Source: a virus (Duplodnaviria > Caudoviricetes). From it: a stretch of DNA of 64,000 bases. Below are positions 23,953-28,033 of the stretch, one piece after another; the first letter of the stretch is position 1, and each line of letters begins with the position of its first letter. Below the pieces are notes generated by a model. That model had not been told where the DNA came from, did not search any database, and saw only the letters and a list, made by a program, of their open reading frames with translations. The position numbers and the translations under genes are program-made. Location of the stretch: IMG/VR virus record IMGVR_UViG_3300017963_000189; one strand, given 5' to 3'.

Positions 23953-23991
23953 AATATAATACATTTTAGCGTCATTGTCAACTGTTTTCTG
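23953..23991 (-). promoter_or_regulatory. sigma70-type phage promoter P8
   Basis: CAGAAAACAG-TTGACA-17bp-TATATT. Confidence 0.85.
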
Positions 23992-24162
23992 ATATTTCTT
24001 TCAATGCTGGCAATATATTTTATCCTCTCATATCATATACACCGGGGCGCGTCTCAAAAAGCGACCTCACGACACAAGCACACAATGTTGAGCGCACCGG
24101 TGCTGCTGCTCTTCTGTTTTCCTGACTTTCCCCCTGTCTCCGTGTACCCGTGTCCAGCGCAT

Positions 24163-24192
24163 AAAAAAAACCGGACTCAAAAGAATCCGGTT
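24163..24192 (-). terminator. intrinsic terminator (second, downstream of the ATPase unit)
   Basis: RNA AACCGGAUUC-UUUU-GAGUCCGGUU followed by a U tract. Confidence 0.8.
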
Positions 24193-24300
24193 CGCGGGGT
24201 GCGCTACCATGCAGCTCGTATACGTTATAACTCGTTTGTCTACTCGTAAGTATGACTCACTCTTATATATTATACTCAGGGATACGGTTAAAAGTTCCCT

Positions 24301-24337
24301 AAAATAGAAAAAACCGAGGTGTGACCAGCACCTCGGC
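24301..24337 (-). terminator. intrinsic terminator of the ATPase transcript
   Basis: RNA GCCGAGGUG-CUGGUCA-CACCUCGGU-UUUUU. Confidence 0.85.
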
Positions 24338-24352
24338 TTTCCTTGCAAGAAC

Positions 24353-24448
24353 GAGTAGGTATAGGAAAGGAGTTAACTATACCATACTCTTGTTTATAGT
24401 CCGAGACACCACTCTCAGACTTATTAACCGGGACACCACTCCCGGTTA
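24353..24448 (-). ncRNA. candidate structured RNA element: three hairpins in the ATPase 3' UTR
   Basis: Stems at 24425-24448 and 24399-24420, both with loop GUGGUG; stem at 24353-24389 with loop UUAACUCCUUUC. Confidence 0.5.
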
Positions 24449-24476
24449 TCCCCAACTAACCACCTATCCTATATAA

Positions 24477-25763
24477 TTAGTTTGTAAAGAAATCTTCGTC
24501 CTCGTTGAATAGATCATCCGTTTCATTGTTTTCCGATTCCTCTACTTCCTGTACTTCTACTTTTGGTTTCGCCATTGGAAATGTGTCTACATTATCCAAA
24601 TGACTTTCACCTTGTACAACTTGTCTCATGTGCGCTCTCTCAGATTCCCCGACTCCGCCTTCATCGTCGTACATTGGAAATACGACAGCTTCCATTACCT
24701 CGGTGAACTTGAAACCATCAATCAATAACGCGACCTGCTCAACAGTTGACCGTGTCGAAATAATAGTTGATAATTCCGGTTCCTCGGATATAACGTTTTC
24801 TCGTGTATACCAAGCAACTTTGGCGATACCCTTGAGTAATTCTTTATTCACTTTAGGATATAACAACTTCAAAAGATTATATTCTTCATCTTCCGTTAAA
24901 ACAGGTATATCTACTATTGTGGTGAATCTATCTTTTGTCGCCCGATCAATCTGACGAGTTGATGTATATTCCGTACCAACGTTCTCAGTACCAAAGAAAC
25001 ATACACCATCAGCAACCTCAACTACAGGGGTATCAGGATGTTCGTCAATTCTGAGATAACGTTGATCTTTGTCAAGTACCGTTAAAAGGATATTCTCGGC
25101 GTCATTGGAAAGCCGTGAGACTTCATCCAAAACTACCACTGCACCCGGAGTAGTAATCGCTGTAACGAATTCACTTTTGGCGAAATACGTACCTTTATCA
25201 GGATCGTAGTGAGTATTACCAATCAAAGCTGTACGAGCGTCCTGCATCGCTCCAAGATTAAACTTGAAAACTGGGCGACCATACGCTTTTGCTAATGTAG
25301 TAGCAGTTAAAGTTTTTCCACCACCACTATGACCATTAAATAATATATTTTCTCCGCGTAACAGAGCACGTACACTATATTTCCAATGAAGTTCTGAAAG
25401 AACTAAGGTATTAGGTTTTTTAGCGTAAGCGTTCATTACACCGGTTCTTACTTCATCATCAGTAAGTTTCTTATACTCATTATCATTAGAGTTTTCGCCA
25501 GACGAAACACCGGGATCGGCGAACGGACTCGTATACGATTTTGGTAACTTGTCCTTTTCAATACGACGCCAGATAACGTTCCCCGCTTTGGAAACTTTCT
25601 TACCAAGATAACGTTCCCTGTCTACGGCGAAACGGCGAGCCCCATAAGGAATAGTTTCATTCACCGGTTCACGGGATAAAACTTCCACGGGTACTAATTT
25701 GTTTCCCTCTCTTATTACTTCTACAATAATGTCAAATGAATCTTGTTTTTTATTTTTCGCCAT
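24477..25763 (-). CDS. MoxR-family (CbbQ/NirQ/NorQ-like) AAA+ ATPase
   Basis: Walker A GHSGGGKT, Walker B VVVLDE, R-finger DRATKDRF, CbbQ-like C-terminal ISTR. Confidence 0.9.
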   Translation of the reverse strand: MAKNKKQDSFDIIVEVIREGNKLVPVEVLSREPVNETIPYGARRFAVDRERYLGKKVSKAGNVIWRRIEKDKLPKSYTSPFADPGVSSGENSNDNEYKKLTDDEVRTGVMNAYAKKPNTLVLSELHWKYSVRALLRGENILFNGHSGGGKTLTATTLAKAYGRPVFKFNLGAMQDARTALIGNTHYDPDKGTYFAKSEFVTAITTPGAVVVLDEVSRLSNDAENILLTVLDKDQRYLRIDEHPDTPVVEVADGVCFFGTENVGTEYTSTRQIDRATKDRFTTIVDIPVLTEDEEYNLLKLLYPKVNKELLKGIAKVAWYTRENVISEEPELSTIISTRSTVEQVALLIDGFKFTEVMEAVVFPMYDDEGGVGESERAHMRQVVQGESHLDNVDTFPMAKPKVEVQEVEESENNETDDLFNEDEDFFTN

Positions 25764-25798: not shown

Positions 25799-25837
25799 AA
25801 TATAATAAATATAATCTACAATGTCAACTGTTTTCTG
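25799..25837 (-). promoter_or_regulatory. sigma70-type phage promoter P9 (ATPase)
   Basis: CAGAAAACAG-TTGACA-17bp-TATATT. Confidence 0.85.
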
Positions 25838-25839
25838 GT

Positions 25840-26124
25840 TTATTTTCTAAGTTTATCGTTTATACTTTTTGGATAATGCTTACCTGCTCTCTTAGATACA
25901 TAGTTGAAAATCCGTGATCCGCATTCCATACATTCGCCGAAATGACCTTTCATTTTTATAGTTCCAACGGAAAACTTAGTGTCGTTCGGCAAGAAACCAA
26001 ACCCTGTCGGTAACTCCAGAGTCCCTGTTCCATCGGCCCATACATCGCCCCCACCTTTACAATCGGGACACTCCATATAGTTTTTCTTCTTGTCATACTT
26101 TTTAATCTTTGGTAAATCTGACAT
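25840..26124 (-). CDS. zinc-ribbon protein
   Basis: CPDC and CMEC; first gene after P10. Confidence 0.7.
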   Translation of the reverse strand: MSDLPKIKKYDKKKNYMECPDCKGGGDVWADGTGTLELPTGFGFLPNDTKFSVGTIKMKGHFGECMECGSRIFNYVSKRAGKHYPKSINDKLRK

Positions 26125-26153
26125 CTTAGTTCCTTTCTAAATGTTACAATACA

Positions 26154-26192
26154 AATATAACTAATTACCGCTTAACAGTCAACTGTTTTCTG
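26154..26192 (-). promoter_or_regulatory. sigma70-type phage promoter P10
   Basis: CAGAAAACAG-TTGACT-17bp-TATATT. Confidence 0.8.
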
Positions 26193-26224
26193 ATCTTTTT
26201 TTCATTAACCTTTTCGCCAACGAG

Positions 26225-26381
26225 CTCGGAAAAAGAGGCGAACCGCGCACGGAGTCTGGCCTGTTATCCCACAATACAATATAATAAATTAATAGTCAAC
26301 AGTCAACTGTTTTCTGAGAAAAGCGTCCCAGCTAAATGGACACTGGAACACGGTTTATTTTCGCGCACTCGGAAAAAGAGG
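26225..26381. repeat. 14-bp direct repeat CTCGGAAAAAGAGG x2
   Basis: Copies at 26225-26238 and 26368-26381, each upstream of a promoter. Confidence 0.85.
26278..26316 (-). promoter_or_regulatory. sigma70-type phage promoter P11 (no ORF directly downstream)
   Basis: CAGAAAACAG-TTGACT-17bp-TATATT. Confidence 0.75.
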
Positions 26382-26457
26382 CTATACCTTTATTTCAGGA
26401 AGCCATTAGCATGCCCGTATTTTTATTGTAGGACGGCGTCCCTGTGACACGGTTTAT
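26348..26457. repeat. 11-bp direct repeat ACACGGTTTAT x2
   Basis: Copies at 26348-26358 and 26447-26457. Confidence 0.8.
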
Positions 26458-26580
26458 ACCCTTGTTGGAAATGATCTTTGGAAATGGGGCGCCAATAACG
26501 CCGTCACACAAGCACACCGTGGTGCTGAGACAATTTGATATTCTTTTATGGGCGTTATGGAATACTAAGTGTATAACTGA

Positions 26581-26620
26581 AAGTGGTTGACAGTGGTGTA
26601 AAGTGGTTGATTGTGGATAT
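26581..26620 (+). repeat. four GTGG cores at exact 10-bp spacing (iteron-like)
   Basis: AAGTGGTTGA CAGTGGTGTA AAGTGGTTGA TTGTGGATAT. Confidence 0.8.
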
Positions 26621-26875
26621 TTGAAAAATATTTCAAAAGCGTAAAGACAATAACGAGACTCTTTACAGAATATGTGATAAAGTATTGAGGCTCAACGGAG
26701 TTAGATGAACTGTAGTACAGTAATGGTGGGATATGAATGGCGAAGGTACAACTGTGTCATTTTGGTATATGATAAGGTGTGAACAGGGACACTGAGAATA
26801 GTGGAGTAGTTTACAGGGATGAAAGGAATGAGTAGATTTATATTAAAAAAGGATTTTATGAGTTGAATAAATTTC

Positions 26876-27136
26876 TTATTGTTGACCGATTGTTTTAGAT
26901 TTAGATTTACCACATCGTATACATTTGTATTGTACGATAAAGGGAATTAAGGGAGTAGTCAGGAACGCTGTTAGTATACCGGTAATAGGGTTAGATGAAT
27001 TTGGTTGTTTAATATCATTAGGGTTAGAGATTTCATATTTATGAATTCCGAGTATACATCTAACAGAGAATGATTTCTTTTTAGGTTTATTTCTTAGAGT
27101 AATTCCGTGAGTGTCATATAGATTTCTTTTATTCAT
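26876..27136 (-). CDS. zinc-finger protein with hydrophobic insert
   Basis: CILGIHKY...CIRCGK. Confidence 0.65.
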   Translation of the reverse strand: MNKRNLYDTHGITLRNKPKKKSFSVRCILGIHKYEISNPNDIKQPNSSNPITGILTAFLTTPLIPFIVQYKCIRCGKSKSKTIGQQ

Positions 27137-27154
27137 ATTACTATGTCCTTTATA

Positions 27155-27421
27155 TTAGTCAAATAGTTTTTTACATTTTTCAGCAGTTTCATTTACAGTA
27201 TCATTATTATTTTTGTTGTCGCCACAAAAGATGTAATGAAGTTTTTTGAGTAGTTCTCTCAATGGATAATTTCCCGGTTCCAGGAGTTGTTCTTTTTTGA
27301 CGATCATTTTATGTACTTTTTTATGATGTTTGAATACCCATCTTAACATTTCTATTTCGTCTTTATTAAATGTAAGTGTTAATTCTTCTATCGTATTATT
27401 TGTTTTGATTGATGCTTTCAT
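27155..27421 (-). CDS. hypothetical protein
   Basis: 88 aa; AAGGA RBS. Confidence 0.65.
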   Translation of the reverse strand: MKASIKTNNTIEELTLTFNKDEIEMLRWVFKHHKKVHKMIVKKEQLLEPGNYPLRELLKKLHYIFCGDNKNNNDTVNETAEKCKKLFD

Positions 27422-27442
27422 ATTGTGATCCTTTATTTTTTA

Positions 27443-27703
27443 TTATGTCGCCTCGACATCATGAGTATTTACTAATGTAGAATGATTAGTTTGTTGACAT
27501 TCATGTAATGTCATTAGAATAAGATTTCTTACAGCGTTATCGTATACAAATGATCTTGAAAGTGAATCAGTCCATTGACCGAGTTTCAGTCTCAGGTAGT
27601 GATATTGTTCTCTATACTCAGCGTCACTGATATGCGGTTCATGAAGTGATCCCATATTAAATTGATGTAGAGTTTGACAAATTTCAAGTATATTTTTATT
27701 CAT
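27443..27703 (-). CDS. hypothetical protein
   Basis: 86 aa; AAGGA RBS. Confidence 0.65.
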   Translation of the reverse strand: MNKNILEICQTLHQFNMGSLHEPHISDAEYREQYHYLRLKLGQWTDSLSRSFVYDNAVRNLILMTLHECQQTNHSTLVNTHDVEAT

Positions 27704-28033
27704 TTTTTATTCCTTTTTCTTTATTGATTTGATTTATCAGTGATTGTATATATTGTAAATGAGCGTAATAGGAACCTGAGTAAGTCCAATTTCCATTTTC
27801 TTCAAGACGTTTTGCTTCTATTAATTCACGTTCTAAACGTTCAAGTTTAGTCATTTTCATATCCTCTCCAGATGATGATTACGATTTTTTTGTAGTCATA
27901 TATTTCAAATAGTTTATAGTTATGTGGTTTCTTTTTATGTTTATGGAATGTAAGAGTATGTGGATTCCATTCATATATTTCTTTTTTCATTTAGTGTCCT
28001 TTCATCAGAGAACCGAATGTTTTTTATTAAAGA

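Follow-up and report, generated by a model that had tools for sequence, protein, structure and literature searches.

Twin GUGGUG-loop hairpins at the 3' end of a phage ATPase transcription unit recur with different stems in unrelated carriers

The stretch of DNA analysed here (the window) is 64 kb long and forms the last part of a 161.6-kb IMG/VR virus record (G000). Its G+C content is approximately 33% and every gene lies on the minus strand. Among them is a gene for a MoxR/CobS-like AAA+ ATPase of 428 aa (24477..25763, minus strand; Pfam AAA_5, 4e-14; PHROG 249), for which a promoter scan placed the gene's own AAACAGTTGACA-type promoter at ~25827-25799, also on the minus strand. An identical ATPase is encoded on a 309,378-bp ENA contig (L135). 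CheckV rated the 161.6-kb record as 70% complete, and the identical protein on a metagenome contig of 309 kb indicates that the virus is a jumbo phage of which the record is an incomplete fragment. Two DNA sequencing runs, from sediment and seawater metagenomes, were linked to the record and may represent its source samples. A megablast comparison of the ATPase locus with cultured phages gave no match, and a protein search with the ATPase found distant phage relatives only.

The 3' UTR of the ATPase contains twin hairpins on the minus strand. Past the TAA stop codon (24479-24477), that strand carries in order an unpaired GGUGGUU, a first hairpin (HP1), a 3-nt spacer, a second hairpin (HP2), a third hairpin and an intrinsic terminator (T1), the twin beginning 28 nt beyond the stop. 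HP1 (24425..24448) consists of a 9-bp stem and the hexaloop GUGGUG at 24439-24434 (UAACCGGGA-GUGGUG-UCCCGGUUA). HP2 (24398..24421) displays the same hexaloop at 24412-24407 on a 9-bp stem with one U.G wobble (AGUCUGAGA-GUGGUG-UCUCGGACU). Two hairpins with the same GUGGUG loop and different stems just past the ATPase stop were what the original prediction had described, and the sequence and RNAfold agree on them; the stem of HP2 is one pair longer than had been written, at 9 bp. In RNAfold, the check suggested at the time, both the minimum free energy and the centroid structure comprised exactly HP1 and HP2 (-28.4 kcal/mol, z -3.7, none of 200 shuffles as good). HP1 alone folded at -14.3 kcal/mol (z -4.1) and scored 32.0 bits with a covariance model. 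HP2 alone scored 32.5 bits and folded at -12.3 kcal/mol on the minus strand vs. -7.4 kcal/mol on the plus strand, in keeping with the claim that a wobble in the second stem pairs on the minus strand only.

The tops of the two hairpins are identical over 10 nt (GA-GUGGUG-UC, with invariant A-U and G-C closing pairs), whereas six of the seven remaining stem pairs differ between HP1 and HP2. The core is therefore kept while the outer stems differ and yet still pair, as had been proposed. A constant loop on differing stems is not what neutral decay of a duplication would leave, since such decay would affect the unpaired loop at least as fast. The exact core, GAGTGGTGTC, has three copies in the 161.6-kb record, the third of which falls within a coding region and forms no hairpin. 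When the entire record was scanned for GTGGTG-like loops on stems of at least 5 bp, HP1 and HP2 were the sole matches, and the covariance model, which gives true copies 28-36 bits, found no other match above 15 bits in the record. The twin is a real, strand-specific structured element.

The features on either side of the twin were also read. The unpaired GGUGGUU (24458..24464, minus strand) lies 10 nt before HP1. Hairpin 3 (24353..24389, minus strand), identified by folding, belongs to the same lineage-specific module as the twin, and its loop exposes CUCCUUUC, an anti-Shine-Dalgarno-like sequence that is the complement of GAAAGGAG-type ribosome-binding sites in the window phage. T1 (24308..24342, minus strand) was recovered by both terminator calling and folding as a strong intrinsic terminator with 14 pairs and a U run, and it closes the ATPase transcription unit 55 nt past HP2. 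A search for tRNA and tmRNA genes found none. We also considered a coding reading of this region, a 55-aa ORF with a TTG start (24455-24288), and rejected it: the ORF crosses all four hairpins and the terminator, has no Pfam match and is absent from relatives, and in other carriers of the twin the core lies in other frames or behind stop codons.

Homologs of the ATPase with 64-70% identity were found on short metagenome contigs, and the region downstream of the gene was read in six of these relatives (P0003, P0005, P0006, P0009, P0010 and P0011). The twin hairpins were absent downstream of the ATPase in all six. In every relative the stop codon is followed by 0-130 nt of unrelated, unstructured sequence, then by a conserved promoter-like GGAACTTT...TATAATATA and a conserved small terminator-ended unit. 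The same interval in the window is occupied by a module of approximately 175 nt (the twin, hairpin 3 and T1) inserted between two conserved blocks, and since the relatives lack it, the module is lineage-specific. In this narrow sense the expectation of conservation in related phages was not borne out, and covariation comes solely from the unrelated carriers described below. A relative of a further carrier (L252, below) with 55% identity also lacks the motif. Judged from these comparisons, absence from six relatives of the window phage and one of the L252 phage, the twin is dispensable, short-lived in evolution and patchily distributed.

The small unit downstream of the module spans 24163-24298 (minus strand) in the window, with the promoter-like GGAACTTT-N15-TATAATATA and a terminator at 24193-24168, and its RNA contains conserved GAGUUACA, ACGAGCUG and GGUAGC..CCCGCG blocks flanking a variable hairpin. 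The unit is kept in six of six relatives (L136, L140, L141, L142, L144 and L145), has no Rfam match and is likely a conserved phage sRNA gene. It is followed by a second conserved non-coding block (24030-24160, minus strand; CAGGGGAAAGUCAGGAAAAC ... CAUAGUGUGCUUGU), also present in L136, L141 and L144, of which a partial paralog (GUGUGCUUGUGU) is found in the control region, 2.4 kb upstream (26420-26530, minus strand).

To establish how widely the twin occurs, 2.9 million viral contigs were scanned for two exact cores 8-35 nt apart. Of the 11 loci found, nine were coding sequence or direct repeats and two (L010 and L011) had the same architecture with wholly different stems. A scan of 241 million metagenome records for the twin-core pattern added L252 and L255, the latter a close relative of L010. 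Taken together, the two scans yield just four independent carriers: the window phage; a 103-kb circular phage with 54% G+C (L010, with the twin at ~74.4 kb of G001:C1; also represented by L255); a 16.4-kb circular element with 56% G+C (L011); and a contig with 38% G+C bearing a phage Gp3-like gene (L252). Word counts and the covariance model agree on one twin locus per genome. In all four carriers the element is on the sense strand, reads in the direction of the genes beside it and comes after a stop codon. The stems have 9/9, 9/11, 11/15 and 6/10 pairs at the four independent loci and the linkers between the two hairpins measure 2-9 nt. The neighbors are the ATPase in the window, a 68-aa ORF and an FkbM methyltransferase in L010, RusA and an integrase fragment in L011, and the Gp3-like gene in L252. 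BLASTP of all ORFs of the three sequenced carriers (G000, G001 and G002) found no credible protein in common, even with very permissive settings. No relatives of the L010 methyltransferase were found, and distant RusA relatives were without the motif. The twin-core scan of bacterial genomes gave no true twin among the at least 120 matches listed, which were coding sequence or direct repeats, and a relaxed viral scan (R/Y closing pairs, loop word fixed) gave no hairpins among the at least 165 matches listed. The twin-hairpin motif is recurrent but rare, and it is uncatalogued.

The flanking elements recur in part. At the place equivalent to the GGUGGUU of the window (24464-24458), L252 also has GGUGGUU and L010 has GUGGUG; in these three of four carriers the sequence suggests that the loop word may be present a third time, without structure. 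L252 further carries CUCCUUCUUAUCC directly past its second hairpin, and a CU-rich element may be part of the twin module in some carriers.

Several of the statistics that can be computed across carriers must be read with the search in mind. Over nine hairpins, 96% of cells were paired compared to 63% in shuffles and 33-47% with partners slid, and seven of nine pairs had changed on both sides (five G.U pairs and no A.C), although these pair and covariation values are inflated by ascertainment because only loci with stems were kept. The third pair was always purine-pyrimidine. Similarly, the 10-mer was fixed by the search pattern, so that invariance of the top between carriers is not evidence, whereas the match between the two tops of the window is what had been observed at the outset and is free of ascertainment. 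Given GA/UC, the chance of seven more pairs is ~0.375^7, or ~1e-3 per hairpin and ~1e-6 for both. With this chance per match and ~420 twin-core matches inspected, four loci would not be expected, and the recurrence of the twin is therefore not due to chance. In the hairpins, L255 departs from L010 at one position, where an A-U has become a G.U and pairing is retained. However, this conservation says little about selection, since the upstream flank is equally conserved (97%). The L010/L255 twin lies at a mosaic boundary, with 97% identity upstream and ~80-82% downstream, in the FkbM methyltransferase gene.

The position of these loci raises the question of whether the hairpins are simply ordinary 3'-end structures, that is, terminator and stabilizer hairpins without a specific reader, with the shared top being a remnant of a spreading cassette or a thermodynamic or sequence coincidence. 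The twin is always placed at 3' ends and module junctions, its distribution is patchy with relatives that lack it, the L010/L255 copy sits exactly where identity falls from 97% to 82%, and the window copy lies within a 175-nt lineage-specific insert flanked by two conserved blocks, all of which would suit this explanation. HP2 in L010, L011 and L252 is moreover terminator-like, a GC-rich hairpin followed by a U run (a T-rich tail in the DNA). In the window, by contrast, HP2 has no U run behind it, neither hairpin has a U tail and a separate terminator follows, so the hairpins are not terminators there. The stems of different carriers have nothing in common, which speaks against recent transfer of a cassette, and a 10-nt top that is identical twice per locus in four contexts ranging from 33% to 56% G+C, with the stems replaced, requires selection on the top. 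We consider it rather unlikely that ordinary 3'-end hairpins account for the twin.

A second possibility is that the twin belongs to a small RNA, either trans-acting or derived from the 3' UTR, in which the two identical loops serve as redundant seeds for a CACCAC-like target. Proposed targets are tRNA CACCA-3' ends, the ACACC repeats of the 16S 1400 region and the phage's own ACACCACU at 26599-26592. The anatomy of L011 is sRNA-like, with TTGACG / TATAAT upstream (spacer 19), a 5' hairpin, the twin and a terminator HP2 with a U tail. FinP and Esr41 (RF02676), which are phage- or plasmid-borne sRNAs, share with L010 and L011 the succession of a hairpin, a short spacer, a terminator hairpin and a U tail, and L011 matches the prophage family Esr41 weakly at the level of architecture (22.6 bits vs. 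a gathering score of 102). This match reflects the generic hairpin-plus-terminator layout: the loops of FinP and Esr41 differ from each other and from GUGGUG, and the window copy does not match Esr41 and, unlike these sRNAs, has neither a U tail nor a promoter of its own. The window module does end in a terminator and include hairpin 3 with its exposed CUCCUUUC loop. As for targets, CACCA reads as the exact complement of UGGUG, and the CACCA-3' end is common to most tRNAs; the sense strand of the 161-kb record holds a single ACACCACU, 2.2 kb upstream in non-coding DNA. However, ACACCACT is absent from the sense strands of G001 and G002, so that an intragenomic target is not general, and 5-6 bp of pairing to a tRNA end or to a buried rRNA segment would be weak without more anchoring. 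T-box RNAs, for example, need further anchoring for their short pairing to the tRNA end. The GUGGUG loop also lacks a YUNR U-turn motif, and a seed would not need the two closing pairs and the purine-pyrimidine third pair that are kept along with the loop. Finally, a promoter search found none directly before the twin in the window or in L010. An sRNA with twin seed loops consequently seems unlikely to us.

The promoters that were found in the window form a family with 13 sites, all on the minus strand, made up of an extended -35 element (AAACAGTTGACA/T), a 17-nt spacer and TATATT. The 13 copies are near-identical, compared to approximately one expected (e.g. 23976-23987, 25822-25833, 26177-26188 and 26301-26312), and members of the family are also present in the relatives L141, L142 and L144. 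This is probably the early promoter class of the window phage.

We also considered a role of the hairpins in DNA. The original prediction had pointed out that a sequence of the hairpins also occurs in phased repeats at 26592, and AGTGGTGT is indeed present at 26592-26599, as the middle unit of a set of 10-bp phased (A)GTGGT repeats found by sequence scan in a non-coding control region (26580..26616, plus strand). Three of only 47 plus-strand GTGGT in the 161-kb record fall in this interval. The link to the twin is nevertheless weak: the repeat lies on the opposite strand, where the sense RNA is complementary to the loops, approximately 0.3 matches are expected from composition, and in the other carriers AGTGGTGT occurs in the twin only, with no second copy anywhere in the genome. 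The repeats comprise four (A)GTGG(T) units in exact 10-bp phase within a 550-bp non-coding region with tandem promoters. Near 26000-28000 the GC skew is locally inverted (+0.10 vs. about -0.3 elsewhere), making this region a candidate origin or control region.

On this alternative, the hairpins would form on the single-stranded sense strand, as lagging-strand template or by extrusion, and would be read by a primase, an HUH nuclease, or an origin or packaging protein, with the phased AGTGGT repeats as double-stranded sites. The same two-hairpin structure is obtained with DNA folding parameters (z -5.9). G.T wobbles are tolerated in DNA and the strand asymmetry suits a lagging-strand template equally to RNA. 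A single twin locus in each genome is also what a DNA signal might show, and in the window the iteron-like AGTGGT array and the local GC-skew inversion are 2-4 kb away. GTGTC, at the end of the core, is among the pentamers that T7 primase recognizes, although a match to a 5-mer is weak. However, the phased repeats carry the loop word on the strand opposite to the twin, and G001 and G002 have no comparable array beside it and no GC-skew or strand-map landmark. No carrier has an HUH or primase gene adjacent to the twin, and in three carriers HP2 is followed by a T-rich tail in the manner of a transcription terminator. We therefore regard a single-stranded DNA signal as improbable.

Dual hairpins with conserved loops are known from several RNA systems, and the twin is of this general class while being a member of no known family. 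Rfam searches of the whole window at gathering scores, and of the locus and the other carriers at permissive E-values, yielded nothing relevant, nor did the literature on GUGGUG hairpins. A close parallel in organization is with the targets of ANTAR regulators, tandem hexaloop hairpins in which the stems and the linker are variable but the closing pairs and residues of the loops are conserved. A dimeric protein recognizes these targets, which are coupled to an intrinsic terminator. The ANTAR targets of EutV, NasR and AmiR are dual hairpins with hexanucleotide loops in which A1 and G4 are required, and the second hairpin competes with a terminator (PMC3369931). The twin differs in having G at both positions 1 and 4 in all nine hairpins. 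Its stems, at 9/9, 9/11, 11/15 and 6/10 pairs, are longer than the short mini-hairpins of ANTAR targets, and it is found at 3' ends rather than in 5' leaders. Likewise, the second ANTAR hairpin excludes the terminator, whereas HP2 is clear of T1 in the window and is itself terminator-like in L010, L011 and L252. No ANTAR domain (PF03861) was found in G000, G001 or G002.

The boxB element of phage lambda, recognized by N, shares other features with the twin, being a phage RNA hairpin of which the tip and not the stem is recognized and which lies upstream of a terminator. A nut site has one boxB hairpin, in which 5 bp support a GNRA-like pentaloop, together with boxA, and lies just behind early promoters. 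The twin instead has GUGGUG hexaloops on 9-bp stems after a 1.3-kb gene, and no boxA-like sequence (GCUCUU-type) was found in 24200-24700. Of the roles suggested originally, boxB-like antitermination is thus not supported: the loop is a hexaloop and not a GNRA-like pentaloop, boxA is lacking in that interval, the position is a gene 3' end rather than behind a promoter, and HP2 is terminator-like in three of four carriers. The broader suggestion of a tandem protein-binding site or protein sponge fares better and is still the reading that we put first, as conservation of the tops but not the stems fits recognition of the tips.

TwoAYGGAY (RF01731) and guanidine-II or mini-ykkC (RF01068) RNAs similarly comprise two hairpins with the same loop and variable stems and linker. 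The loops are AYGGAY in TwoAYGGAY, while those of guanidine-II are ACGR tetraloops that kiss and are located in 5' leaders of guanidine-related genes. The GUGGUG loops, unlike these, are unable to kiss each other, and the twin has no consistent downstream gene, its contexts being unrelated, in contrast to riboswitches such as guanidine-II. Neither the RF01731 nor the RF01068 model matched in the window region at E <=10, or in L010, L252 and L387 at E <=5. CsrA/RsmA sites, with GGA in the loop (A(N)GGA), also differ, as GG is followed by U in the twin and no copy contains GGA.

We infer that the twin may act as RNA and be read by a protein, as a bivalent site at transcript 3' ends recognized by a dimeric factor encoded by the host. 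We favor this reading tentatively, as a possibility that falls short of even. The element would function in the sense transcript, at the 3' end of the unit that expresses the ATPase, and stems of any sequence would there display two identical tips, each a GUGGUG loop above an A-U, a G-C and a purine-pyrimidine pair. Both tips could then be bound by a single RNA-binding factor that is dimeric or otherwise has two sites. There is precedent for such recognition in ThrRS, which reads two anticodon-like loops, and in the ANTAR regulators with their two hexaloops. A conserved component of the host, and not a phage protein, would be the reader, since no protein is common to the three sequenced carriers and their G+C contents lie far apart (33%, 54% and 56%). 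Binding might determine the fate of the 3' end, through termination efficiency, protection from 3'-exonucleases or titration of the factor. The regular presence of two tips, on the sense strand, at a 3' end and on variable stems is the pattern that a two-site tip-reading factor would select. Against this reading, dual-hairpin sites known to bind proteins have far shorter stems, relatives of two of the carriers lack the twin, and few independent carriers turned up in so large a search.

A related possibility, which we consider doubtful, is that unrelated phages of very different hosts acquired the twin or evolved it convergently as an RNA module whose loops engage one universally conserved host component. 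The candidates would be the tRNA CACCA-3' end, a conserved RNA-binding protein, the ribosome or RNA polymerase. If a universal host component were engaged, the twin would represent a new class of effector or decoy RNAs in phages, independent of the host.

Should the tips be read by a host factor, as in the bivalent reading that we prefer, a compact RNA handle of ~60 nt would be in use across phages of hosts ranging from 33% to 56% G+C, and it would point to an undescribed conserved host target of phage RNA. If the twin merely stabilizes 3' ends, it would provide a case of loop conservation with full stem turnover at phage module junctions. It would add an uncatalogued dual-hairpin motif to the small known set (ANTAR targets, TwoAYGGAY and guanidine-II), and it would make a simple bait for pull-down experiments.

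Finally, three further matches, L184 (509-550), L221 (1941-1982) and L240 (1592-1633), were evaluated as twin carriers and rejected, as their two AAAUGGA-GUGGUG-UCCAUUU palindromes are direct repeats of one unit. The repeats belong to a block of ~170 nt that is conserved between the three loci while the flanks are completely unrelated, and that also holds a GGGGACAGACCCC / GGGGUCUGUCCCC inverted repeat. This block is possibly the end of a mobile element and is probably unrelated to the phage twin.
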